A DNA stretch of 63,447 nucleotides, counting the filler, from an uncultured bacterium (GTDB lineage Bacteria; Hinthialibacterota; Hinthialibacteria; Hinthialibacterales; Hinthialibacteraceae), in assembly GCA_964449065.1 (NCBI GenBank). It is 3 parts of 3 records of this genome, joined end to end, with 100 filler letters (N's around TTAATTAATTAA, not from the genome) between each part and the next. Parts side by side here need not be neighbours in the genome. Positions count along the whole stretch, not along the records: positions 1 to 21,339 come from CAYVAZ010000046.1; 2 more parts are not named here. The stretch is one strand, 5' to 3'. Made by a program: the position numbers and the translations under genes. Below are positions 1 through 12,607 of this stretch, piece after piece. How positions within the stretch are numbered: the first letter of the stretch is position 1; every line of letters starts with the position of its first letter. The notes under the pieces were generated by a model, which was not told the origin of the DNA, made no database searches, and worked only from the letters and a program-made list of their open reading frames with translations.

Positions 1-70
1 AAACCTTAGCCTTAACAAGGGGGGGGACAACGGATAGCCAGCCGCCATTTTTTGATTGACAGACTACTAG
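1..70. repeat. Partial copy (right part) of CTAG-bounded MITE-like element, same family as 5297-5406
   Basis: CCTTAACAAGGGGGG..ACAACGGATAGCCAGCCG.CATTTTTTGATTGACAGA.TACTAG is near-identical to 5347-5406. Confidence 0.85.
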
Positions 71-102
71 ACTGTGACAGCGGACCTGTTTGATTCAGGA
101 TT

Positions 103-435
103 TTAAAGGGTTAATTCTTTTTCCGCGCCTTTCGCATTCATGGGAACAAAGCGCATTTCGATACGCTTGTCCAATGCATTCGCGATTTTACGCAGCATCG
201 GCAGAGAATGGCCTTCATAATCCGCATCTTCCAAACGTGAAATAACGGATTGTGTCGTTCCCGCCAGTTCGGCAAGTTCTGTCTGACTCAAACCGGCTTC
301 CTGCCGGGCGTTATAAATCATTTGCCCTACTATTAAATCTGTATAGGCTTCTTCTACCCCTTCTTCAAACTCCGGGTAGTTACCATGTTTTTTTCGGATA
401 TAGTCCAGTGCGTCTGTGCCTTTACTGTCTGTCAT
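103..435 (-). CDS. XRE-family HTH protein, HigA-like antitoxin
   Basis: ARQEAGLSQTELAELAGTTQSVISRLE HTH_3 signature; GGAG RBS; directly follows a RelE/Gp49-like remnant. Confidence 0.85.
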   Translation of the reverse strand: MTDSKGTDALDYIRKKHGNYPEFEEGVEEAYTDLIVGQMIYNARQEAGLSQTELAELAGTTQSVISRLEDADYEGHSLPMLRKIANALDKRIEMRFVPMNAKGAEKELTL

Positions 436-438
436 GGC

Positions 439-573
439 CTATTCTCCTTCCGTGAAGGTATGTTTCACCGGATCAGCCTCGTATATCTTCTTGCGCTCAA
501 TTGCCCGGTCAATCTCTATATCTGGAACCTTTTCCTCTTTAATGATTCCACGTGTTATAACAGTGACGTTCTG
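439..573 (-). pseudogene. C-terminal remnant of HigB/Gp49-like (RelE superfamily) toxin
   Basis: My translation QNVTVITRGIIKEEKVPDIEIDRAIERKKIYEADPVKHTFTEGE* resembles the Gp49-type C-terminus (H-G-x-x-K..P..EI..A..R); no ATG before the upstream in-frame TAG near 630; stop 3 bp before antitoxin ATG. Confidence 0.65.
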
Positions 574-723
574 ACAATTTGTTGAGGCACTGTTTCCGAT
601 ACAAAAAGAATTAAAATCGAATTTGTTCTAACCGATTGATGAAATGCCATGTGCGAATTACCATTCTATTTCAAAACTCGAGACGATCATTTTATTGATA
701 TCATTTAGGCGGTTACAAACTGA

Positions 724-2541
724 ATGTACATATTAGGTATTTCTGCATTTTATCATGACAGCGCGGCGTGTTTATTGAAAGATGGAGACATTGTGGCGGC
801 GGCGCAGGAAGAACGCTTTTCCCGCAAAAAGCATGATTCCGAATTTCCAACCCATGCCATTCAAGCGTGTTTGGATCATGCCGGCATCACCGGGCAGGAT
901 GTGGATCATGTGGCGTTTTATGATAAACCGTTCGTGAAATTCGAACGAATTTTAGAGACCTACCTCACGGTCGCTCCGGCGGGATTGCGATCGTTTATCA
1001 TGGCGATGCCGCTTTGGATGCATGAAAAGTTGTGGCTGCCGAAAGTGATTTCGGAAGCATTGGATTATGAAGGAAAGATATTGTTTGGCGATCACCATGA
1101 GAGCCATGCCGCCAGTGCGTATTATCCCTCTCCATTTAACGAAGCCGCGTTTTTAACGATTGATGGCGTGGGAGAATGGTCTACCACAACCTTTGGCCAC
1201 GCGCAGGGGAATGAGATTCACTTTTTGGGAGAGACGCAGTTTCCGCATTCGCTGGGGCTTTTGTATTCCGCTTTTACTTATTATACGGGATTCAAGGTGA
1301 ATTCAGGTGAATATAAGGTGATGGGGCTGGCGCCGTATGGCAACCCTACCTACGTTCAAACCATTTATGACGAATTGATTGATGTAAAAGAAGACGGTTC
1401 GTTTCGGCTGAATATGAAGTATTTCAATTATCTTTCCGGCCTGACGATGACCAACAGACGCTTTGACCGGTTGTTTGGCGGTCCGCCGCGGAAAAGCGAA
1501 ACGCTCCTCACACAGCGGGAGATGGATTTGGCGCGTTCGGTGCAAGTCGTAACCGAAGAAATTATGTTGAAGATGGCGAATCATGCGCAAAAAACAACCG
1601 GCTCGAAAAACCTTTGCCTGGCCGGTGGTGTCGCGCTGAACTGTGTTGCCAATGGACGCATTTTGCGTGAAGGACCGTTTGAGAATATTTGGATTCAGCC
1701 TGCCGCCGGTGACGCCGGCGGCGCGTTGGGTGTCGCGTTGAGTATTTACCACCGTTATCTCAATCATCCATTGCCCGAAAAGCACGGCAAAGACCGGATG
1801 AATGCCGCTTTAATCGGACCGCTAACAACCGATGAGGAATGCCAAGCGTATTTGGATGAATTGGGGGTCTCATACAAAGTGGTTGAAGAGGATCAATTGG
1901 GGAGGGAAACCGCCAAGCTGCTGGCGGGCGATCACGTGGTTGGATGGTTCCAAAACCGGATGGAGTTCGGGCCGCGCGCTTTGGGAGGGCGGAGTATTTT
2001 GGGAGACCCCCGGTCATCGACCATGCAGTCGCGAATGAATTTGAAGATTAAATTTCGCGAATCTTTTCGTCCTTTCGCACCCGTTGTGTTGCGCGAGAAG
2101 GTGCATGAGTATTTTGAGATGGATTGCGATTCTCCCTATATGCTTTTGGTGGCGCCGGTAAAAGAGGAACGCCGTATTCCGATGACGGAAGATCAGGAGA
2201 AATTATTTGGGATTGAAAAGCTTAATGTGCCGCGTTCGGATATTCCGGCGGTGACGCATGTGGATTATTCGGCGCGGGTACAGACGGTCACGCGGGAAGA
2301 TCATGGGCGGTATTATGATGTCGTAAAGGCGTTTGAAGAGTTGACGGGTTGCGCCGTGTTGGTCAACACTTCGTTCAACGTTCGGGGAGAACCGATTGTG
2401 GGGTCTCCGGAAAACGCCTATACCTGTTTTATGCGTACCGATATGGATTATTTGGTGTTGGGGCGCTGTATCTTGGATAAAAAAGAACAACCTGAATTGA
2501 AAGACGATACAGACTGGCGCAAGGAGTTTGAACTTGACTAG
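724..2541 (+). CDS. O-carbamoyltransferase, NodU/CmcH/SxtI family
   Basis: ILGISAFYHDSAA, EERFSRKKH, HHESHAASA, DGVGE, EFGPRALG, RESFRPFAP, NTSFN motifs. Confidence 0.95.
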   Translation: MYILGISAFYHDSAACLLKDGDIVAAAQEERFSRKKHDSEFPTHAIQACLDHAGITGQDVDHVAFYDKPFVKFERILETYLTVAPAGLRSFIMAMPLWMHEKLWLPKVISEALDYEGKILFGDHHESHAASAYYPSPFNEAAFLTIDGVGEWSTTTFGHAQGNEIHFLGETQFPHSLGLLYSAFTYYTGFKVNSGEYKVMGLAPYGNPTYVQTIYDELIDVKEDGSFRLNMKYFNYLSGLTMTNRRFDRLFGGPPRKSETLLTQREMDLARSVQVVTEEIMLKMANHAQKTTGSKNLCLAGGVALNCVANGRILREGPFENIWIQPAAGDAGGALGVALSIYHRYLNHPLPEKHGKDRMNAALIGPLTTDEECQAYLDELGVSYKVVEEDQLGRETAKLLAGDHVVGWFQNRMEFGPRALGGRSILGDPRSSTMQSRMNLKIKFRESFRPFAPVVLREKVHEYFEMDCDSPYMLLVAPVKEERRIPMTEDQEKLFGIEKLNVPRSDIPAVTHVDYSARVQTVTREDHGRYYDVVKAFEELTGCAVLVNTSFNVRGEPIVGSPENAYTCFMRTDMDYLVLGRCILDKKEQPELKDDTDWRKEFELD

Positions 2542-2971
2542 GATTGTTTACAAAGTTCCAGACAATACCGAATTGCGGAAATTCGGGATTGTTATGTTTA
2601 CCGCGTTGTTGGTATTGAGCGGTATTGTTACGCTGATCGGTTGGTGGTGGCACGGTACAATCGGGTGGAACAAGATCTATGTGCTGAACGGCATTGGGAT
2701 CGTGGTATTTTTGCTGCCGGGATTGATTTATCCTTCGGTGTTAAAACCGGTGCATAAATATTGGATGAAATTCGGTATGGCGCTGGGCTGGGTGAATGCC
2801 CGCATTATTTTGAGCCTGATTTGGTATTTGATCTTTACCCCGGTTTCGATATTTATGTGGATAATAGGCCGGGATATTTTGCACCGCAAACTGGATAAAG
2901 ACGCGAAGACCTACTGGATTGACCGCAGCAAAGAGGAAGTGAAGCCCAAGCATTTTGAACGGCAGTTTTAA
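2528..2971 (+). CDS. SxtJ-family membrane protein
   Basis: LRKFG N-terminus, WMKFGMALGWVNARIILSLIWYLIFTP, TYW, C-terminal FERQF; overlaps carbamoyltransferase stop. Confidence 0.85.
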   Translation: MNLTRIVYKVPDNTELRKFGIVMFTALLVLSGIVTLIGWWWHGTIGWNKIYVLNGIGIVVFLLPGLIYPSVLKPVHKYWMKFGMALGWVNARIILSLIWYLIFTPVSIFMWIIGRDILHRKLDKDAKTYWIDRSKEEVKPKHFERQF

Positions 2972-3030
2972 CTGTCATTATTTGGGATTGTGTTTATTAC
3001 ATGCTATCAACAGTTGTACCTTATTTCCTA

Positions 3031-3058
3031 TTGATATGATGTGTCAATCTATTATCGT
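3031..3058 (+). promoter_or_regulatory. Putative sigma70 promoter of ncRNA copy A
   Basis: TTGATA-16 nt-TATCGT; aligns without gaps (offset 490) to the promoter at 3521-3548. Confidence 0.5.
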
Positions 3059-3070
3059 TAATAACAGTAT

Positions 3071-3130
3071 ACCTGCCGAGCTTCTTTTTGGTTTCAAGCC
3101 AAAAACGCTTAAATGCGGCAGGGTTTTTTG
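3071..3130 (+). ncRNA. abiF-motif-like structured RNA, copy A (putative orphan RNA antitoxin)
   Basis: Outer stem CCTGCCG/CGGCAGG plus T-tract; GAGC/GCTT stem; inner TTTTTGGT/GCCAAAAA hairpin; 43/60 ungapped identity to 3561-3620 with compensatory changes. Confidence 0.75.
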
Positions 3131-3131
3131 T

Positions 3132-3331
3132 AACCGATGGGCTTTCCGAAAAATTGGCGGCAATGCCCAATTTGGATGGAATAATTCCAAAAGAAATATG
3201 GAATGTCCGCTTTCGGTATGACTGGTGGGCTACCGGACACAAGCCTTTCGGTTGGATTCAGGCTTGCACCCGCTTTGACATGAAGCGTAATCAAGGTTGT
3301 AAGAGTGTTGAGCCCACCCTACCAATATAAC
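3132..3331 (+). repeat. Direct repeat copy 1 (last 53 nt of abi gene plus downstream element)
   Basis: 3132-3315 identical to 4478-4661 (184 bp); after a 4-bp indel 3320-3331 equals 4662-4673. Confidence 0.95.
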
Positions 3332-3357
3332 GGACATTTTTTATTTCAAATGGAATA
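3183..3357 (+). mobile_element. MITE-like element family A (~175 bp), complete copy
   Basis: 27-bp imperfect terminal inverted repeats (3183-3209 vs 3331-3357, 20/27); internal GGTGGGCT/AGCCCACC stem ending CCCTAC; other copies at 4529-4673 and 57485-57660. Confidence 0.7.
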
Positions 3358-3489
3358 AGAAAGCCAGAATTATTCATTGATAGTATGGGATTCTTGCCTC
3401 TCTCTATAAATCTGAACCACACCCCCCGCCCTTTGAACCTCTTCGGTAGAGAGGTAACCCGCTTTCTACAGAAATGGGATTTTCAGAGA

Positions 3490-3517
3490 GATGCTACCGT
3501 TCAGATACTACCGTTCA
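3490..3517 (+). repeat. 14-bp tandem repeat x2 immediately upstream of the -35 box
   Basis: GATGCTACCGTTCA GATACTACCGTTCA. Confidence 0.7.
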
Positions 3518-3520
3518 GTA

Positions 3521-3548
3521 TTGACACGTTTTGCCGATACATTATGAT
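3521..3548 (+). promoter_or_regulatory. Sigma70-type promoter for ncRNA B and abiF
   Basis: TTGACA-16 nt-TATGAT, 12 nt upstream of the structured RNA stem. Confidence 0.7.
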
Positions 3549-3560
3549 TGTAAACAGCAC

Positions 3561-3620
3561 ACCCACCGAGCCTCTGTTTGGTTAACCGCCAATTACGCTT
3601 AATTCCGGTGGGTTTTTCTT
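3561..3620 (+). ncRNA. abiF-motif-like structured RNA, copy B (putative RNA antitoxin/leader with terminator)
   Basis: ACCCACCG/CGGTGGGT stem plus T-tract, GAGCCTCT and ACGCTT core, directly 5' of an Abi_2 gene. Confidence 0.8.
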
Positions 3621-3635
3621 TTCCAAGGGGACAGC

Positions 3636-4530
3636 ATGAGATACACAAAACACCCCCCTTACTTTTACCGAACAAACAGACTCGCTCATCAAACGCGGCT
3701 TCCTTGCGGACCGTGATGAACTCATCAACACATCAGAGCATATGAACTATTACCGTTTGAGCGAATATCTGTATCCGTTTCGCAATGCGGATAATGAAAC
3801 GTTTAAACCCGGAACAACATTTGAAATGATTTGGAGACGGTACACGTTTGACCGCCGGCTGCGTTTGCTGCTCTTGGATGCTATTGAACGAATTGAAATT
3901 TCCGTGCGAACCTTGTTAACCTATCATTTCAGCCATCAATACGGTGCGTTTGGACATACACGTCAAGCCAACCTGCCCAAGCTTGAACCGATGGAATATG
4001 CAAAGTGGTTAACCCAATTGCAAACGGAAACCGGACGCAGCCAAGAAATCTTCGTGAATCATTTCCAACAGAAATATGATGAGCATGAGCATTTACCTCT
4101 TTGGATGTTGTGTGAAGTGATGTCGTTCGGGTCTACGCTTACCTTCTTTAAAGGAACATCCCCTGAGATAAAACGCAAAATCGCCGAGCGCTACAAGATA
4201 CCGGATGAAGTGCTGCGGTCTTGGCTGCGGGCATTGAACGCGGTTCGAAACCTTTGTGCCCATCATGGACGTTTAATCGGCAGAGAGCTTGGATACAAAC
4301 CGCATATCCCCAACCGCCGGAAATACCCTGATTGGCATGAACCGGTATCGTTTACCAATAACCGGGTATTTGTCATCTTGACGATATGCCGGTATTTGAT
4401 GCGCCTCATTGCCCCGCAAAGCCGTTGGGCAGCGCTGTTGTTTGCCCTGCTGGACGAATACAAAGGGATACCGCGCGAACCGATGGGCTTTCCGAAAAAT
4501 TGGCGGCAATGCCCAATTTGGATGGAATAA
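3636..4530 (+). pseudogene. abiF: AbiF/AbiD (Abi_2, PF07751) HEPN ribonuclease toxin, +1 frameshift near start; intact frame 3742-4530
   Basis: NYYRLSEY, YTFDRRLR..IERIEI, LPLW..EVMSFG, HEPN R-x4-H in RNLCAHH (4246-4266); ATG 3636 with AAGGGG RBS gives MRYTKHP then continues PLTFTEQ..LIKRG only after removing one C from the C6 run 3653-3658. Confidence 0.85.
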
Positions 4531-4673
4531 TTCCAAAAGAAATATGGAATGTCCGCTTTCGGTATGACTGGTGGGCTACCGGACACAAGCCTTTCGGTTG
4601 GATTCAGGCTTGCACCCGCTTTGACATGAAGCGTAATCAAGGTTGTAAGAGTGTTGAGCCCTACCAATATAAC
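4478..4673 (+). repeat. Direct repeat copy 2; includes family A MITE copy lacking the right terminal repeat
   Basis: Matches 3132-3331; sequence after 4673 does not match the right inverted repeat of copy 1. Confidence 0.95.
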
Positions 4674-4701
4674 TGGTTAAATAAGCAAATGGTTAATTAT
4701 A

Positions 4702-5227
4702 ATGGAATATTTTGATTTCTATAAACAATTATATTTCCATGAAATAGATCGCAAATTCAAACTTGATCAAGCTTTGACTCAGCCAATTGATTTGAATACA
4801 ATTATCGGAGGAGCAATTTATATTTTTTGCCAAAGGTACATTTAGATTTTTATAGATCTCTGTCATGTTTCTATGATATCGTTGTATTGCTAGCCACAAT
4901 GTCTTGGTTGTTAACTATTTAATCCGATCACGCATTGTAGATTCATATGCATATTTGCCGGTCTATGAAATCAATGAGTATAAAAATAAGTTGTCTAGAT
5001 GGAATGAAGAGCAAAATTCGAATATAAAATTATCAAAGGTTGAAATTGATAATACGTTTGAAGAGTTCATGAATAAAATTTTTGTGGAATGTACAAATAA
5101 GAAATTTAAAAATAACAATAAGAAATCGGGTTATTTGCATCTGGCAACAAATTCTATTGTACATAACATGATATTTCTATTCTTTTTAGTGATATTTCAA
5201 TTTATAATAAATTTAAGAACACAATAA
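4702..5227 (+). pseudogene. AT-rich multi-pass membrane hypothetical, disrupted
   Basis: MEYFDFYKQLYFHEIDRKFKLDQALTQPI..IYIFCQRYI* (stop 4843-4845) then continues in another frame as ORF 4904-5227 ending in a hydrophobic helix. Confidence 0.55.
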
Positions 5228-5296
5228 TTGGAGTGCATGATGAGCGATAAAAATCAAGAACATTCGGATCAATCAACCACAACACAGAGTTCAAAA

Positions 5297-5406
5297 CTAG
5301 TACAGTGTCAACGTTTTATTGACGGGTGTCGATCCCCCCTAGCCCCCCTTAACAAGGGGGGGACAACGGATAGCCAGCCGTCATTTTTTGATTGACAGAG
5401 TACTAG
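5297..5406. mobile_element. CTAG-bounded MITE-like element (110 bp) with internal poly-C/poly-G REP hairpin
   Basis: 29-bp imperfect inverted ends CTAGTACAGTGTCAA..TGACGG / CCGTCA..TTGACAGAGTACTAG (20/29); core CCCCCCTT-AAC-AAGGGGGG. Confidence 0.75.
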
Positions 5407-5445
5407 AGCCTCCAAAACCGGTGTATATAAAGGAAGATAATACTC

Positions 5446-5742
5446 TTGGTAAAGAGAGTGGAAGTAAAGGCCGCTAAAGAAAAGAGAGTTAGGTTTGACC
5501 AGAACATGACGATTAAGTTTGACGAGTATTTACACAAAGTGTGCAAAGTGGAGTTTCGGTTTGGTGAAGGAACCGAAAAGACGATGTCGTATACCGGCAT
5601 GGTGGAGGCGGTGATCCGTGAGGGGGAGCAGGTTCCGCATTTGGTGCTGAACGCGCATTATGCCGGGCGGACCCAGATTGAGTTGGATGCGGTTGAATCG
5701 GTGGAAGAAGTGGGCGAAGACTACTTTGAAAAGCCGTCATGA
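5446..5742 (+). CDS. Hypothetical protein
   Basis: 98-aa ORF with AGGAAG upstream and protein-like composition; no family recognised. Confidence 0.55.
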   Translation: MVKRVEVKAAKEKRVRFDQNMTIKFDEYLHKVCKVEFRFGEGTEKTMSYTGMVEAVIREGEQVPHLVLNAHYAGRTQIELDAVESVEEVGEDYFEKPS

Positions 5743-6381
5743 TGACAATATGCTTTGCAACTTGGTTTTGATGCTGAGATTGTCCGCCAAAAGTTTGTTG
5801 AATTCTTCTTTTGTATCCACATCATACCACCCGGGCAAAATATCCATCGAAATGTGATGCTCTTTGGCATTCATCAGCGTTTGGTATAGCACCAAATTGG
5901 TTGACCATTCGATGTCTTGAAATAGTGACGTGCAGTTGCTTTTCATCCCGATGAGATAATATCCTCCGTCATTGCAAGGGCCGACCACGGTATCGTGATC
6001 TTCCAGTGACGCAATGGCTTCTTCAATATATTCTGATGGCAAATCGGGGCTGTCTGTACCCAACGCGATCACTTTGGCGTACTGTTGAAGTTGGGTTTGG
6101 AACCCGGTGGTAAGCCGTTGGCCCAAATCACCTTCGGGCTGGATGTCGTAAATAAATTGATGCCCCAGCCATTTCATGATTCTTTCTTTTTCTTCTTTGG
6201 GTGTACAATATACGATGCAATCGGTATGGGAAATTTTTTGATAACGCTGCATACATGTTTCGGCGAATAAGCGGTAGACGGCGGCTGCTTTTTGATCGCC
6301 GATAGAAACTGCCAGCCGGGTTTTCACTTGGCCGGGTTCGGGATATTTTACGAAGACAAGCAAAGCGGTTTTGGGATTCAT
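5737..6381 (-). CDS. TIGR04282/DUF2064 family glycosyltransferase-like protein
   Basis: FVKYPEPGQVKTRL, QPEGDLGQRL, LGTDSPDL, GPCNDGGYYLIG, YDVDT; start taken at MNPKT (6381). Confidence 0.9.
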   Translation of the reverse strand: MNPKTALLVFVKYPEPGQVKTRLAVSIGDQKAAAVYRLFAETCMQRYQKISHTDCIVYCTPKEEKERIMKWLGHQFIYDIQPEGDLGQRLTTGFQTQLQQYAKVIALGTDSPDLPSEYIEEAIASLEDHDTVVGPCNDGGYYLIGMKSNCTSLFQDIEWSTNLVLYQTLMNAKEHHISMDILPGWYDVDTKEEFNKLLADNLSIKTKLQSILSS

Positions 6382-6384
6382 TCT

Positions 6385-7326
6385 ATGACTCACAACTTTA
6401 AACCCATTTTTGTATGGATGACGATTATCATAAGCGGCTGTTGTTTCGGTTTTGTTCCGGCAGCCTTTGCTCAGCCGCGTGTGTTTCCGGAACAACCCAT
6501 CTTACTCGAACCTGCTAACGGTTCAACTATTTCATTGCCAAGTACCGGATCGACGGTGGCATTTCGATGGTCTTCCGTCATCGGGGCAACGCGATACGAA
6601 CTAAATTTTCGTATAGGCAACATCCCGCGCCCTCCTATTCAGACAACGGAAACATCGCTTGCAGTGCCATTGAATGTTGGCGCAACCAATCAAAATACGG
6701 TCGTGTTTTGGAGCGTGCGGGCCGGCGATGAAAGTGGATTCAGCACGCAGCCGGTGCAAACCGCATCGTTTATTGTTGCCGCCGCGACTGGAAGCATACC
6801 GACACCCAGCCCTACCCCCACTTCAACCATAAGGGTACTCAAATCACCCAAACTGTTGCAACCGGAAAACCGGGCGAATATTGAAGTGGCCACCGCGGTT
6901 ACGGGAATTGACTTTGATTGGAACGATCAACTCGGCGCGGATCAATTTATCTTAACGATCTACCGTGATAATGAAATCGAAAAGCAAATCCAGACTGGAT
7001 TGTCGAATGCCCCGCGTGTGAGTGTGCAGGAGTTGCGGGTGGCAGAGACCTTTCAGTGGGATGTAACCGCGATTCAAAACCGAACCGGCAGCCGAAAGAA
7101 GAGTGAACGCTTTTCGTTCACGATCGGCAATGGGTTTCTGCCGACTCCGACTCCAGTGCCGCAAAGGGTGGATTTCAACCAGGATCAGCGGGTTAGTGCT
7201 TTGGATGTCTATCTATTTTCCACATGGTTTTTGACCAATGCGCCGAACGGTGATTTGGATAATTCCGGGATACAAGACCGCAACGATCTATTGTTGTTTT
7301 TGGAATTGTTTGCCACGCGACAATAA
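6385..7326 (+). CDS. Secreted protein with two Ig/Fn3-like domains, Pro/Thr linkers and C-terminal dockerin-like EF-hand pair
   Basis: Signal peptide ending AFA; repeated P-x-LLxP-x-N..F-x-W; DFNQDQRVSALD and DLDNSGIQDRND Ca-binding loops. Confidence 0.75.
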   Translation: MTHNFKPIFVWMTIIISGCCFGFVPAAFAQPRVFPEQPILLEPANGSTISLPSTGSTVAFRWSSVIGATRYELNFRIGNIPRPPIQTTETSLAVPLNVGATNQNTVVFWSVRAGDESGFSTQPVQTASFIVAAATGSIPTPSPTPTSTIRVLKSPKLLQPENRANIEVATAVTGIDFDWNDQLGADQFILTIYRDNEIEKQIQTGLSNAPRVSVQELRVAETFQWDVTAIQNRTGSRKKSERFSFTIGNGFLPTPTPVPQRVDFNQDQRVSALDVYLFSTWFLTNAPNGDLDNSGIQDRNDLLLFLELFATRQ

Positions 7327-7336
7327 CGATTCCATG

Positions 7337-7430
7337 AGAGCAATTCAGGTTTGCGTAGAGGTACAATGTATACATGCACATACCGGCTAGAAGCCGGTGC
7401 TACCCGGCTATTCAACTCTGAAACGCTTTA
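7337..7430. repeat. MITE-like shell family B with ACCGGCTAGAAGCCGGTGCTAC REP cargo
   Basis: Left 23 nt match 22778-22800 (21/23); right 23 nt match 22868-22890 (19/23); lies between convergent genes. Confidence 0.75.
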
Positions 7431-7481
7431 AGCGGTCGCTTTGCCTTGATTTCGATTTTCTGTACAAGAATATTGGAAACT

Positions 7482-8102
7482 CTACAATTCTCCCCCTTCT
7501 TTCTCAAAAAATGACAACATACGTTCATAATCTTTTGGTGAATGGATGGTATGCAAAATCGCATCGCTCTCAACGGGGACATGAATAATTTGATCTTCAT
7601 GGCGTTGATAGATGCTGCGAACTGATTCATCGTCTTTCAATCCCGCTATCTCATCAAAATAGGCCTTTCCGATCAATGGTGGATGTCCACTTTTGTTTTG
7701 GTAGGAGGGAATGCAAATTGACATCTCGCCGGAATAAGCTTCCATTAGGACTTCAAAAATACCGGATGTGATTCGAGGACATTCCACTGGCAGCAAAAAG
7801 AATCCGCTTATATTCTTCGGCAATTCAAACAAACCGCACTGCACACTGGTGGTTCGTCCTTCTTGGTACCGTTCGTTGATCGAAAACGGAACTTCTTTTG
7901 GGATATAAGATAGGATATTTTCCGGCTCGTGTCCCAACACAACATGAGGGAGAATGGATTTTCTTTGCAAAAATGGGTTAGAAAGGATGTGTGAGAGAAT
8001 GTTTTTTCTTCCCAAGGGCAGCAATGGCATTGGGGTGTCCATCCAACTGGATTCTTCCGCTGCCAGGATCATGACGGCATATTGAAGGGGGTCCTCGTTC
8101 AT
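7482..8102 (-). CDS. MocA/MobA-like NTP transferase family protein with degenerate motifs
   Basis: ILAAxxSxxM, Y..G..TSVQCG, GHPPLI, I..P.DY; glycine loop altered. Confidence 0.8.
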   Translation of the reverse strand: MNEDPLQYAVMILAAEESSWMDTPMPLLPLGRKNILSHILSNPFLQRKSILPHVVLGHEPENILSYIPKEVPFSINERYQEGRTTSVQCGLFELPKNISGFFLLPVECPRITSGIFEVLMEAYSGEMSICIPSYQNKSGHPPLIGKAYFDEIAGLKDDESVRSIYQRHEDQIIHVPVESDAILHTIHSPKDYERMLSFFEKEGGEL

Positions 8103-9487
8103 AATAGATCACTCAGTAATGGAACCAATTCTTGAAATGGGATATCACGGGCGGCAATCACGCCTTCTTTGTCTATCACAATCATGACAGGAACCTGCTG
8201 AATTCCAAAGCGGAACGCGATGCCGCTTTTGGGGTAATTTTTATCCCACAGGGTGGTCATTTCAATTCCGGTTTGATCCAGATAGTGCCGCACGCTGTTT
8301 TTGTTGGTATCTAAGTTGATACCGATAAACTCAATTTTGTTGGGATTCAGTGTTTTCCGCAGGTCTTCCAAATCCAGCAGGGCATGTTCAGCTGGTTCCC
8401 ACCATAACGACCAAAACAACAAGACTCTTACTTTTTCTTTGTCGGGGCTAAATTTGTATTCTTCTCCGGAAAGGGTCTCTGCGGTAAAGGGGGAAACTTC
8501 CCAGCTGGGTAATGATTGCTGTAAGTTTTGATTGAGGCGTAGGTCATACCGGTGCATCAACACCAAATCTTTGGCTGCATCCCGCAAGATCGGCATGGGG
8601 GAGTTTTCGGAAAAATCGACCATCAGATCGATCAGTTCGGCCGCTTGATCGATTTTCAATTGTTTGAGTTGTTGTTGATAATCAAAAAACTTGGCGATTT
8701 CCTGACGAATGACCGGAAGGTGTTCATCCCGAAACCGGTTGGTTTGGTCTAAAGAGCATTCGATACGAAGGTCAGCATACGATGCGTCTGAACCATCTTG
8801 CATTTTTAACTGATACGCTGTGGCGGAATGTTGCGGAAGCTGGATGGAGGGGTTGTATATGATTTCGTGTTCTAAAAATTGCATGGAGATTTGCGGGGAG
8901 GATTGGATTGGAATTGGCCCTAAAAGGCTTGCCGCGATATTAAACCGGTTCTCCTCTACCGAATGAGGCTGCGCAAGCACGAAGAAATTTTCGGTGTGGA
9001 TTTGCTCATTATTGATGTGGATTGGGAGTGAAGTTTTTATTCGTTCCGATAATGGTATGGGGTCTTTCGGCAGAGGGGGAAAGTAGATCATCGGTGTCCA
9101 TCCGGTACCGAATTCCTCGGAAGTGGAAGGAATGGTAACCCGCCCGGTTTTTGGATTCCATTGCCAGTTGTAGGCAGAAATGTTTCCATACGGGGCTTCT
9201 ATGGTTTGGCCATCCAATGTGCGCCGCACCATTTTTGAAATACCGAGCAAGTTAGCCGTACCGGAATTCTCTACATCGACAACGATGAAGCGGGATTCAA
9301 TCACACGGGTGCTTTCTTCGGCAAACACCCCTTCCGACTGCAACTCAAAGGTCGCTGTGAAGATCAAATCCATACCGGCCTGCAAGTTATATTGCGGAAC
9401 CAATGTGTTGTCTTGCGCGGATATCATGCCTGGGAAACGAAAGGCAATCGCGAAAAGAACACCGGATAAAAATACGAATCGATTCAT
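8099..9487 (-). CDS. Secreted protein with C-terminal TlpA/AhpC-TSA thioredoxin-like domain lacking CxxC
   Basis: Signal peptide; LLFWSLWWEPA, FIGINLD, FGIQQVPVMIVIDKEG. Confidence 0.8.
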   Translation of the reverse strand: MNRFVFLSGVLFAIAFRFPGMISAQDNTLVPQYNLQAGMDLIFTATFELQSEGVFAEESTRVIESRFIVVDVENSGTANLLGISKMVRRTLDGQTIEAPYGNISAYNWQWNPKTGRVTIPSTSEEFGTGWTPMIYFPPLPKDPIPLSERIKTSLPIHINNEQIHTENFFVLAQPHSVEENRFNIAASLLGPIPIQSSPQISMQFLEHEIIYNPSIQLPQHSATAYQLKMQDGSDASYADLRIECSLDQTNRFRDEHLPVIRQEIAKFFDYQQQLKQLKIDQAAELIDLMVDFSENSPMPILRDAAKDLVLMHRYDLRLNQNLQQSLPSWEVSPFTAETLSGEEYKFSPDKEKVRVLLFWSLWWEPAEHALLDLEDLRKTLNPNKIEFIGINLDTNKNSVRHYLDQTGIEMTTLWDKNYPKSGIAFRFGIQQVPVMIVIDKEGVIAARDIPFQELVPLLSDLL

Positions 9488-9493
9488 GATAAA

Positions 9494-10204
9494 TCACATT
9501 TGGTGGAAGCGTTCCGGATTGCGGATGGTTCTCCACCACAATTTGAATATGGTATACAAAATCATGCTTCCCGCTTTCACACTTCCGCTAATGGTGCCGG
9601 AGATTTTTGATGTTCCAATCCGTTTGCGGTAGGAAACCGGGACTTCGCAACAATCTAACTTCATAATAGCCGCTTTGGTCTGCATTTCCACAGTCCAGCC
9701 ATAGGTTTGGTCTTCCATGTTCAATTTATTTAACGCTTTTTTTGTTACAGCGCGAAAGGGGCCGAGATCGGTAAACGTATAGCCGAATAAACGGTGGATT
9801 AAAAAACAGGCTAAGCGGTTGCCAAAATTGGCATGAACGGGAAGCGCACCCGACTCGCGATATCCCAATATTCGGGAACCGATTACCATATCTTTGCCTT
9901 GGGTAAGAATAGGATTCAAAACCAAGGGCATTTCGGAGGGATCGTCGCTGAAATCCGCGTCCACAAAAACAATCACATCGGCTTGGCTTGCTTCCGCGAT
10001 ACCGCGCAAACAGGCGTTGCCATACCCGCGCTGGGGTTCATGGATGACATGAGCGCCAGCCTGCCGGGCAAGTTCCGCGGTGGCATCGGTTGAAGCGTTG
10101 TCAACGACGATGATCCGGTCTATCCGGTCTTTTGGTATCGCCTGCATCACGTTTTCAATCGACTGTTCTTCATTGTATGCGGGAATGACAACTTCAATTC
10201 GCAT
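9494..10204 (-). CDS. GT2 glycosyltransferase (DPM1-like)
   Basis: VIPAYNEE, VDNASTD, GYGNAC, FVDAD, TDLGPFRA, YGWTVEMQ. Confidence 0.95.
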   Translation of the reverse strand: MRIEVVIPAYNEEQSIENVMQAIPKDRIDRIIVVDNASTDATAELARQAGAHVIHEPQRGYGNACLRGIAEASQADVIVFVDADFSDDPSEMPLVLNPILTQGKDMVIGSRILGYRESGALPVHANFGNRLACFLIHRLFGYTFTDLGPFRAVTKKALNKLNMEDQTYGWTVEMQTKAAIMKLDCCEVPVSYRKRIGTSKISGTISGSVKAGSMILYTIFKLWWRTIRNPERFHQM

Positions 10205-10207
10205 AGA

Positions 10208-11839
10208 TTAATCCTGTTGGGTTTCGTTAAAGCGGTAAAGCAGGATGGAATGCCCCACATGACCGATGGGTTCGTATTGTTCCAACCAATCAAAATAATA
10301 GGGAGAACGTTCATGAATTCGCTGCCGTATGGCCCAATGTATTCCGACGGCGACAAGACCGGTGGGGGGAGTTTGGATATGCTCTTTTCGCAATCGTTCC
10401 GCGTGGTATCCAAACGCGGGGGGATTGAGCATCCAGTTTGTCGCGACATAAAACGGTTCATTGGGATCTTGCGCTTGAACATCTTTTAAAGCCGCCAAAT
10501 CCTGCCCCCAATCGATGTTGGAATCATCTAAAATATAGTGCGCGTTATCAGGCCCACCGGCCGCTTCATTAAAGTATGCAAGATAATGAGGAGAAATCCA
10601 AATGGACGCGGCGGCATACCATAGCAAGAATACGGGAACAACCATTCCTCTTATCCGTCTATTTTCAATGAGGGCGGCTCTCCCTAAATAGAGAAATAGA
10701 AGTGGATAAAGCGGAAGAACATGCCGCAGACCGATGTTGACCCGGGTCAACATAGATGCGGCGATAATAAGGAGTATTGTTCCGGCGATTAGAATATCCG
10801 CTGTACCGTTCCAGCGTTGTTTGCACCAAATAAACGTGAAGATCAGCAGCCCAAATACAGCCAAGGGTGTTTTTACCAGGATCGCGACCAAATAGTAATA
10901 AAACCAGCCGGAGGTGGAATATTCGCCCAGTAGATAAAAGGCATAGTTGGTATGGGGCATTCCGGGAACAGGTTCACCGCCGGGGGTTTGCGTTGATTTA
11001 AAAATCACGTTTTCTAGTGTATCAAAATAGTAGAAAGAATTAAACGGGAAACCGTAAATAAACAATAAACAGATAAAAGCGCATCCAGTCATGACGGCCG
11101 GTATTACCGCGAATCGTTTTACCGGAATAGCAGACCAGGATTCATACCGCTTTCGTTCGGCGAGCAGCAATCCGGCTAATAATGGAAGAAATAAAAGAAT
11201 GGCAGTCACTTTTGCGGCGAGCGCGAGCCCAAATACCAATCCGGTAAGGATGAGAAGCCTACGGTTCGGATATAACCAATAGTTGTAGACCGCAAACAAA
11301 GAGGCGGCAAAGAAAAAACTGACGCCTAAGTCCATCGTGGCAAGCGAAGCATGAGCGAGGATATTGGGTGAGAATGTGTATAAAAATAATGAAATCAACG
11401 CGCCGTTTTGCCCATACAAATGTTTAGCCCAAACGTAAAGCAATGCCGCCAATCCGCATGAGAGTATAAGAATAGGAAGTCGTGCCAGCGTGGCTAGATA
11501 CCGCCAGTCGTTTTCTCCGCCTAGCAGCATTTCCCACCCGATCACGTAGCCTAACATGTTGCTTTCGAGAGTATCCCATTTATTTTGCTGAAGAGGGGGA
11601 AGATGGATGTCCGCCAATTGCAGCGGAATGCCCATGAGAAGGCGCAGCAGGGGGGGATGGGTTCGGTCTAAACGAAAATCACCGGTTTGAACGTAAATAT
11701 ATGCCGTTGAGATGTAGGAATATTCATCCGCCGTGGGAGCGGCATGGCGCAGCGCCATCCAACCCAAGCAAAAATGCAGGAGAATCAAACCGCATACGGT
11801 AAGTTTGAGCAAAAACCGAAGAGATAATGAGTCATACAC
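10208..11839 (-). CDS. GT-C (ArnT/PMT, GT39-like) membrane glycosyltransferase
   Basis: TADE, HPPL, SPNILAHA..TMD, GLRH.LP, YFNE..GG, DSNIDWGQDL; many TM helices. Confidence 0.9.
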   Translation of the reverse strand: MYDSLSLRFLLKLTVCGLILLHFCLGWMALRHAAPTADEYSYISTAYIYVQTGDFRLDRTHPPLLRLLMGIPLQLADIHLPPLQQNKWDTLESNMLGYVIGWEMLLGGENDWRYLATLARLPILILSCGLAALLYVWAKHLYGQNGALISLFLYTFSPNILAHASLATMDLGVSFFFAASLFAVYNYWLYPNRRLLILTGLVFGLALAAKVTAILLFLPLLAGLLLAERKRYESWSAIPVKRFAVIPAVMTGCAFICLLFIYGFPFNSFYYFDTLENVIFKSTQTPGGEPVPGMPHTNYAFYLLGEYSTSGWFYYYLVAILVKTPLAVFGLLIFTFIWCKQRWNGTADILIAGTILLIIAASMLTRVNIGLRHVLPLYPLLFLYLGRAALIENRRIRGMVVPVFLLWYAAASIWISPHYLAYFNEAAGGPDNAHYILDDSNIDWGQDLAALKDVQAQDPNEPFYVATNWMLNPPAFGYHAERLRKEHIQTPPTGLVAVGIHWAIRQRIHERSPYYFDWLEQYEPIGHVGHSILLYRFNETQQD

Positions 11840-11848
11840 GAAGTTATA

Positions 11849-12607
11849 TTATGTTGATTGTGGTTTTGTTTCCGGCAAAGCATGCGCCTTATTTTTCTGA
11901 AATAATAAAGAATATATGCATCCTACCACCGCCCCCAAAAATAAACCGTACAACAAAATGATGGTTGCTCCCGGAAGCAGAACACCGGCGAACTGTCCTT
12001 TATAAAAGTTATAATTTTCGTAGAGCTGTTGATAGGCGGGGGAAATGAAATTGCCTCCCACCACCGCGAGTACCACCAATATCGAATGAAAAATGCTGAT
12101 GACAATGGAATAGTTTAAAATATGTTCGGAAGAGATCCGCTTGTTCGGTAAGAGAATTTTGAAAAACAAAAACAATCCGCCAAACAAAACGAGATAAGGA
12201 ATTAAAATCATGCCGCGTAAATTATTGACTTTCAATTCAAAGATCCAATGCGGTGCATTGATCGTGGTGTAAAAATACGTGCCGACGCCGGCAACGCCGA
12301 CTTGGTCGAAATAAGAAGATTGAGGAATTACTCCTTCGTCCGGTTTCAGGGCAAACCGGTAAAATAAGGGGTAATACGGTACAAATCGAGGCTCTCCATT
12401 GGCTTGGATTGATTCTTCTCCTTGAAGAGGCAGAGATGGATAGCCGGTAGAATAAGCCCAAACGGTTGTGAGAACAAAGCCGGCAATAAATGTGAATAAT
12501 GAAGCGAGCAGGATTCGCGCCAAAACCGCCCCCGGCGACAAGGTTTGATCGCTGCCCGTATGCGGTCTTTTTGGAGTTGAATGTTCCGTTTGTGAAGCGG
12601 TTGCCAT
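11849..12607 (-). CDS. Hypothetical membrane protein
   Basis: 252-aa ORF in operon, about four hydrophobic segments. Confidence 0.75.
   Translation of the reverse strand: MATASQTEHSTPKRPHTGSDQTLSPGAVLARILLASLFTFIAGFVLTTVWAYSTGYPSLPLQGEESIQANGEPRFVPYYPLFYRFALKPDEGVIPQSSYFDQVGVAGVGTYFYTTINAPHWIFELKVNNLRGMILIPYLVLFGGLFLFFKILLPNKRISSEHILNYSIVISIFHSILVVLAVVGGNFISPAYQQLYENYNFYKGQFAGVLLPGATIILLYGLFLGAVVGCIYSLLFQKNKAHALPETKPQST

Follow-up and report, generated by a model that had tools for sequence, protein, structure and literature searches.

Antitoxin-type RNAs without a toxin are familiar from phages, whose pseudo-ToxI decoys act against ToxIN. AbiF, as summarised in a review, is a HEPN RNase neutralised by AbiFr, a cis-encoded non-coding RNA that is bound one per monomer of the dimer (8VZ6), and it has been proposed as the ancestor of Cas13 (PMC12737573). 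Two-motif abiF RNAs, and the idea that motif duplication is a step towards arrays, are already published: the RCd22 report describes an RNA of a phage-borne AbiF of C. difficile with two abiF motifs acting in cis and in trans (10.1101/2025.04.15.648962; PMC12373285), and the array step is proposed there for RCd22 itself (10.1101/2025.04.15.648962). In cyanophage S-CREM1 an abiF small RNA (sRNA) was recorded at 51.6 bits, with three phage genomes in Rfam (PMC9964418). Here we consider a 63,447-nt stretch of DNA (the window, at its full length) from an uncultured bacterium of the Hinthialibacteraceae (GCA_964449065.1), in which positions 3031-3130 form a complete second abiF-type unit, copy A, upstream of a comparable unit, copy B, that precedes an Abi_2/AbiF toxin gene, gene B. 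Copy A is on balance best explained as the leftover antitoxin of a separate, A-type AbiF type III module whose toxin was deleted, and not as a working partner of copy B. More broadly, the genome shows AbiF modules at several stages of decay, together with rearrangement associated with a repeat resembling a miniature inverted-repeat transposable element (MITE).

A second abiF-type unit in the window

The gap-free alignment of the two copies described in the initial annotation stands out clearly from background. Between 3001-3130 and 3491-3620 (offset 490), 79 of 130 bases are identical, against a mean of 33.0 (standard deviation 5.1) and a best of 57 among the 62,600 other ungapped placements in the window, and a recount over the 60-nt RNA at 3065-3124 gave the same 43/60 identities. 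The -35/-10 pairs of both copies were likewise located, in register with each other: a predicted promoter-like site TTGATA-16 nt-TATCGT at 3031-3058 for copy A (9/12 match) and TTGACA-16 nt-TATGAT at 3521-3548 for copy B (11/12 match), both on the plus strand, as are the other features of the abi locus apart from the MITE-like copies. A hexamer scan gave 4 sites against 3.6 expected, so that the hexamers by themselves are not significant; the weight of these putative promoters is in their position in register with the RNA, not in the hexamer score.

Folded alone, each RNA takes the same shape, in which a 7-bp outer stem P1 and a 3-bp inner stem P2 are accompanied by an additional hairpin, P3, with 6 nt bulged on the 3' side and a T-run behind the stem. 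In copy A the core spans 3072-3122, with P1 at 3072-3078/3116-3122, P2 at 3079-3081/3107-3109, P3 at 3085-3093/3097-3105 and the bulge at 3110-3115, and the T-run after P1 forms a terminator-like tail (GTTTTTTG, 3123-3130), a layout found in 17/17 aligned homologues. The copy B core, placed by Rfam, by our covariance model R1 (below) and by folding, lies at 3562-3612, followed by its T-run. The structure of copy A is perfect, with all 7+3+9 pairs formed, and the minimum free energies are -22.0 kcal/mol (z -3.1) for copy A and -19.5 kcal/mol (z -2.9) for copy B. Paired compensatory changes had been noted in the outer stem, and we count two double changes between CCTGCCG/CGGCAGG in copy A and CCCACCG/CGGTGGG in copy B; the loop start and the bulge are conserved between the copies.

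An Rfam scan of 2980-3660 returned copies A and B as the sole matches, both to abiF (RF03085). This check, which had been suggested at the outset, thus succeeded for the family but not for the score: in the 681 nt scanned, copy A reaches 22.9 bits (E 0.15) and copy B 23.7 bits (E 0.092), both short of the gathering cut-off of 37 bits. Nevertheless, in cmscan both alignments run the full length of the model (positions 1-37) and contain standard pairs only, and both copies have the 6-bp P1, the 3-bp P2, the asymmetric 3' bulge and the CUCU at the loop start of the RF03085 consensus structure. The shortfall arises because the copies carry an insert of 20-21 nt (P3) in the loop, against 6-7 nt in the model. 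The cut-off is likewise missed by gene-linked RNAs of this clade (24 bits in front of the intact G009 gene, 27 bits at L020), and a more distant homologue (L022) passes it at 40 bits; the low Rfam score is a trait of the clade, not of copies A and B. A search of the whole genome with RF03085 gave no match at E <= 10, because the copies score too low for a genome-wide E-value.

We aligned 17 units (4 from the window's own genome, 9 from genome_contigs loci and 4 from genomes of the same family) with MAFFT and built R1 from this alignment. In it 86.5% of cells pair, against 70.5% in shuffles, the P2 counts being lowered by a one-column misplacement of P2 in the four actinobacterial rows; 9 of 14 pairs are changed on both sides, and sliding the 3' partners to other registers leaves pairing at 49% or less. 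The covariation score of 0.330, against 0.112 in shuffles, was reached by 0 of 500 shuffles, which supplies covariance support among homologues. Over the whole own genome R1 finds exactly four units: copy B (70.2 bits), a unit B' on contig C369 (60.7 bits), copy A (58.0 bits; E 4.6e-14 over the whole genome) and a unit A' on contig C228 (53.8 bits). Copy A is thereby borne out as a second abiF-type unit of promoter-like site, RNA and terminator.

Toxin loss, signs of module decay and the 184-nt repeat

Copy B lies directly upstream of a same-strand Abi_2 gene, and copy A does not: at 3131/3132 it is fused to the end of such a gene. Only a 53-nt 3' remnant follows (3132-3184), consisting of the last 16 codons and the stop TAA at 3182-3184 and 100% identical to 4478-4530, so that the direct join of RNA to gene end, exact at its 53 nt including the stop, and the absence of a toxin after copy A were both found as first described. 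The protein search recovers this remnant as C46:3131-3181, at 94% to residues 280-296 of P0001; positions 1-21,339 of the window are contig C46 of a metagenome-assembled genome (MAG) of 515 contigs that is 86.7% complete. Three DNA runs of one microbial-mat study, and no listed RNA run, contain parts of the stretch, as Logan contigs (k=31) only. Among these, X1 record 1 (504 nt) covers 2900-3161 with 0 differences and ends 30 nt past the junction, by our reading where the k=31 graph must branch. X2 record 9 (493 nt) spans 2900-3192, differs there at 11 positions and by 1 gap, and continues for 61 nt beyond the junction. The junction is thus present in contigs of two runs and in two strains and is not an assembly chimera, and since these contigs were built independently, the orphan state of copy A does not depend on the MAG assembler. 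In the X2 strain, one P2 pair of copy A is broken by G3107T, and 1 nt of the bulge is deleted (single contig, depth 4.4).

By sequence, gene B (3636-4530) is an Abi_2/AbiF toxin gene with a broken frame. Its frame at 3640-4530 matches Pfam Abi_2 at E 2.2e-55 and PbAbiF (PDB 8VZ6_A) at E 6.3e-47, with R203/H208 of P0001 aligned to R210/H215 of 8VZ6_A in the R-x4-H motif of HEPN. The start codon, ATG 3636, is found 23 nt after the end of P1 with a Shine-Dalgarno-like AAGGGG upstream; it is in frame 0, which stops after 26 codons, and the remainder of the gene is in frame +1, the reading frame being broken at codon 7. The G009 homologue (same family; 67% identity in nucleotides, 69% in amino acids) reads MRYTKPHLTFKEQ (MRYTKPHLTF) in one frame, and the C6 run of the window (3653-3658) therefore holds one extra C. 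X2 record 13 confirms C6 with 0 differences. X2 record 12, which has 2 differences to the copy B RNA, then C5 and a somewhat different gene start, is in frame by hand translation, so that intact relatives are present in the community. Gene B itself is probably dead, and at best would have a low level of expression by +1 slippage. The earlier estimate of at most one toxin at the locus would accordingly come down, probably to zero, as gene B is frameshifted and 0/4 abiF RNA units in the assembly have a demonstrably intact toxin; the protein search of the genome found one full-length Abi_2 frame (gene B), the two fragments linked to A' and B' (below), the 16-codon remnant and one weak match of 24 residues.

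The units elsewhere in the genome place copies A and B in different lineages. A' is 85% identical to copy A over 100 nt, and within ~30 nt after it stands the 5' part of an Abi_2 gene, 52% identical to gene B over 83 residues, which runs off the contig after 82 codons. Because A' precedes its own divergent Abi_2, A-type RNAs have their own toxin lineage; instead of a diverging duplicate pair, A and B represent two lineages that each have another copy in the genome (A' and B'). The A'-linked gene (L009 2120-2160) lacks an in-frame start, has a TAG two codons ahead of the conserved KPPLTF stretch, and is probably another inactivated toxin gene; ATA is seen there where relatives have ATG, out of frame with KPPLTF. 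The A' RNA has lost P2. B' matches the window at 92% over 209 nt, and its RNA has two P1 pairs broken and the family fold lost. The B' gene, which extends onto contig C105 and X1 record 4, breaks off after ~100 codons, adjoining ndk. Signs of decay are therefore found in all four modules, as the B frameshift, the B' truncation, the A' TAG, the damaged A' and B' RNAs and, in the X2 strain, the changes within copy A itself.

Several observations concern the DNA upstream of these units. A' is preceded by an Rfam tRNA match (C228, 36.8 bits) that overlaps N bases; ARAGORN reported no tRNA at the C228 and C369 loci, and at C369 a T-arm-like stretch was seen by eye only. Shortly after the tRNA or tRNA-like sequence, a conserved segment of ~100 nt stands upstream of the promoters of both A' (L009 1860-1990) and B' (L011 4430-4530), and may belong to a mobile unit or mark the scar of an integration. 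In the window, the spacer between the A and B units (3359-3520) is homologous from 3452 onward to the DNA upstream of B', with a match of 92%. A tandem 14-nt direct repeat (AGATGCTACCGTTC / AGATACTACCGTTC) at 3489-3516, just upstream of the copy B -35 hexamer, recurs upstream of B' (L011 4545-4575) and could be a candidate regulator binding site.

The remnant is part of a larger exact repeat. Positions 3132-3315 equal 4478-4661 at 184/184, with 15 nt more matching after a 4-nt indel, and the repeat extends 131 nt beyond the gene end, so that its second copy (4478-4661) likewise comprises the gene end and the left 131 nt of a dispersed MITE-like element. The first copy of this element (3182-3358, ~177 nt, with terminal inverted repeats of ~26 nt and its ends defined by aligning 6 further copies) has the abi stop codon at its left terminus; the second (4528-4709) lacks 4 nt present in the first. 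The element was found at no fewer than 37 other places in the genome at 72-98% identity (40 of 88 candidates scored), L003-L008 being among these loci, and an Rfam scan of window positions 1-12000 gave no match to it at E <= 1. The two copies in the window have an unusual terminal variant in common, are identical on the left and diverge strongly over the right ~45 nt, a mosaic that would speak for gene conversion or duplication and against two separate insertion events.

To read the remnant as the decayed end of copy A's own toxin does not fit this assembly, where it is a 100% copy of the gene B end plus the MITE-like repeat. Of the 53 positions of the remnant, 6 (3142, 3148, 3149 and 3158-3160) are changed in the X2 strain, with 1 difference only in the 131 nt upstream of it; the remnant is therefore not always identical to the end of gene B. 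Read by hand in the abi frame, these changes would be 2 synonymous third positions, 1 K-to-E replacement and 3 changes in one codon from R to I. The remnant may thus once have been a diverged gene end, which in the window's strain was overwritten by the B copy, unless the two were collapsed by the assembler. The k=31 contigs cannot cross the 184-nt repeat, and the adjacency of A and B (490 nt) rests on an assembly path through a multi-copy repeat; that this adjacency is wrong we regard as unlikely, but as a chance to be kept in mind.

We favour a history in which the genome once had several AbiF modules, in each of which the toxin would have been damaged before the RNA, as the opposite order would kill the cell; the RNA units would have drifted afterwards. 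In the A-type module of the window, the deletion would have begun immediately behind the terminator and spared the final 53 nt of the gene, and gene conversion, or a duplication of the gene B end with its MITE, would then have laid the 184-nt repeat over the older remnant. Transcription of copy A is predicted to continue from its own promoter to its own terminator, giving an RNA of ~60 nt that would have no cognate toxin to bind.

A number of points weigh against this history. Copy A, with its intact fold and promoter-like hexamers, is more intact than A' and B', which would also fit selection for a free RNA, and the toxin-less units of three relatives (G014, G002 and G011, discussed below) score 50-60 bits with R1, in the same range as the gene-linked units (53-67), with no visible decay. 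The signs of decay in the X2 copy rest on one low-depth contig. With the MAG 86.7% complete and in 515 contigs, and the A' gene leaving its contig unfinished, an intact A-type toxin could lie in unassembled DNA. Gene B, more speculatively, may not be dead, as +1 slippage on CCC-C could bypass the frameshift.

Relatives, viral contigs and rival readings

Searching 35 genomes of the phylum with R1 (the class- and phylum-level sets are identical and held no locus beyond the family search), we found the RNA at E <= 1e-5 in 8 of 35 genomes, all in the window's family, as the 4 units of its own genome and 8 units at 7 loci in the 34 others. A further 8 weaker matches in relatives (24-29 bits), with no Abi_2 nearby, were left out of these counts as possible false positives. 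By tblastn, Abi_2 is present beside the RNA at 4/7 loci (G009, G017, G001, G013) and was not found beside it at 3/7 (G014, G002, G011); at genome_contigs loci, a same-strand RNA stands directly upstream of Abi_2 in 10 of 11 cases. A metagenome scan with a 25-nt stretch of copy A P3 found no intact A-type locus, and its three matches, which had neither the outer stem nor an Abi_2 gene, were dismissed as chance.

The toxin-less loci show that toxin loss recurs, in line with the favoured history. They also bear on the main rival, which we consider less likely, namely that copy A is maintained as a free-standing antitoxin RNA that would neutralise in trans whatever toxin leaks from gene B, AbiF arriving on mobile elements (anti-addiction) or related paralogues. 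In G014 the RNA is followed by an NTase_sub_bind (HEPN) gene (Pfam E 5.5e-18), in G002 by a palindromic element and a Y1 transposase, and in G011 by another palindromic element of this kind, where the contig has just 270 nt left. The three units have unrelated flanks, so that the toxin losses are independent, and, as noted, these units score like gene-linked ones. At the G014 locus (L044, G014:C81, 1501-1558) we also observed that the intact abiF-type RNA comes after the end of a type I methylase-like gene, and that the NTase_sub_bind gene is accompanied by a probable nucleotidyltransferase partner; either the cargo may have been swapped behind a retained RNA, or the RNA may have a new HEPN partner.

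Viral sequences point the same way. A pattern scan of viral contigs gave three matches, all in phage contexts of the structural or methylase type, two beside a head-closure gene and the third flanked by genes for a portal protein and a DNA methyltransferase (L061 2501-2542, L063 2241-2282, L062 2043-2089). No Abi_2 match was found in these 3/3 records, which are fragments of 2-10% CheckV completeness, so that an Abi_2 elsewhere in the phages is conceivable; their abiF-type RNAs are candidate phage-borne antitoxin decoys.

The perfect fold of copy A, its promoter-like hexamers, the loop start and bulge common to A and B, and the action in trans described for RCd22 of C. difficile (10.1101/2025.04.15.648962; PMC12373285) would all suit such a free antitoxin, and copy A might neutralise a foreign AbiF, as was initially suggested. 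Against it, an intact structure is equally expected after recent toxin loss, the X2-strain copy A already has its pair-breaking change and bulge deletion, and A' and B' are visibly degenerating. Moreover, cross-reactivity between an A-type RNA and a B-type toxin is hypothetical, the B toxin and the A'-linked toxin being 52% identical over the 83 residues compared. The wider proposal, that free abiF RNA units are kept as trans-acting anti-AbiF decoys, serving chromosomal immunity to addiction and phage counter-defence, with the toxin-less units (3/7 in relatives, 3/3 viral) as a functional class, strikes us as rather improbable.

It is less likely again, and in our estimate quite improbable, that copies A and B form a functional two-RNA locus serving the single B toxin, with the remnant and the MITE as later insertions. 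Such loci do exist, as the suggested survey of related genomes showed. In G017, a genome of the same family, one intact Abi_2 gene is preceded by two units lying 148 nt apart (G017:C64, L037/L043), of which the distal one has a 26-nt exact stretch in common with copy B. Gordonibacter sp. LT827128.1 (L025, 1316-1487) has two units 114 nt apart, again before one intact Abi_2 gene; two-unit loci with an intact Abi_2 are thus seen in two unrelated phyla. One RNA per monomer of the AbiF dimer (PMC12737573) would also suit two RNAs for one toxin. In our locus, however, copy A once had a gene behind it, as the toxin 3' remnant immediately beyond it shows, and gene B is frameshifted. That A and B are neighbours depends on the assembly path through a multi-copy repeat, and units of A-type and B-type are each found singly at other places in the genome, A' with a divergent toxin of its own. 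Nor does the locus look like an early step towards an RNA array, as had been proposed: the copies are separate transcription units, 490 nt apart, both equipped with a promoter-like site and a T-run and parted by a gene remnant and a MITE, and not the head-to-tail repeats of one precursor found in a ToxI-like array. The idea is in print for RCd22 in any case (10.1101/2025.04.15.648962).

That the assembler created either the junction at 3131/3132 or the path by which copy A is linked across the repeat to copy B is very unlikely as a whole and for the junction alone exceedingly so: the MAG does hold several strains or paralogues at 3-7x depth, the 184-nt exact repeat includes a MITE with at least 37 other genomic places, and the contigs shown have 3476-3922 only as variants in X1 (21 and 12 differences) with the copy A side exact and the reverse in X2, as would fit a join of two strains inside the repeat, but the junction is found in k=31 contigs of two runs, exact to 30 nt past it and as a variant strain to 61 nt past it, and the strain pattern is weak, as contigs show presence, not absence.

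Beyond the abi locus, the window has an AT-rich segment at 4700-5300 (26-30% G+C, against 44-50% around it) that may be foreign DNA; it contains an open reading frame (ORF) at 4904-5227, for which there was no Pfam match, and a smaller one at 4702-4845. In 7 relatives that keep the carbamoyltransferase and SxtJ-like genes, the window's downstream ORFs were not found within the ~1-1.5 kb examined, and no empty site was identified there. A C-rich/G-rich palindromic element at 5297-5399 is repeated in the window's own genome (C448, 91%), and the recurrence of its ~30-nt core at many places in relatives (G002, G003, G018) marks it as REP-like.

Comparison with known systems

If copy A is only a scar, it illustrates clearly how an RNA-antitoxin module decays, with the toxin going before the RNA. 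It would also show how scars can come to resemble designed arrangements through MITEs and gene conversion, which calls for caution in scans for steps from AbiF to Cas13 arrays. Toxin-less abiF RNA units recur within a small phylum and in phage fragments, and the two-unit loci with an intact toxin in G017 and Gordonibacter are natural material for work on cross-protection and on two RNAs per AbiF dimer. Our literature search returned no paper on chromosomal orphan abiF RNAs, which the primary AbiF-Cas13 paper may cover, and no description of the G017 or Gordonibacter two-unit loci in the literature examined.

The copies in the window share with RF03085, AbiFr and 8VZ6 an outer stem of 6-7 bp, an inner stem of 3 bp, a CUCU loop start and a 6-nt 3' bulge; like RF03085 and AbiFr they have their own promoter-like site and T-run, and copy B stands directly upstream of Abi_2. 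Unlike the RF03085 consensus, they carry the P3 hairpin in the loop and fall below the cut-off; copy A has no toxin gene behind it and copy B a frameshifted one. With RCd22 the locus has in common that more than one abiF motif is present. The RCd22 motifs, however, are 19 nt apart on one transcript with an intact toxin gene (10.1101/2025.04.15.648962; PMC12373285), whereas the window has two separate units of two lineages, a remnant and a MITE between them and no intact toxin. Closest in layout are the G017 and Gordonibacter loci, which likewise have two divergent promoter-RNA-terminator units in tandem on one strand, but 114-148 nt apart, with nothing gene-like between and an intact Abi_2 following. 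The abiF sRNA of S-CREM1 and pseudo-ToxI, finally, resemble copy A in being antitoxin-type RNAs without a toxin; those are phage-borne, whereas copy A is chromosomal and has a deletion scar beside it.

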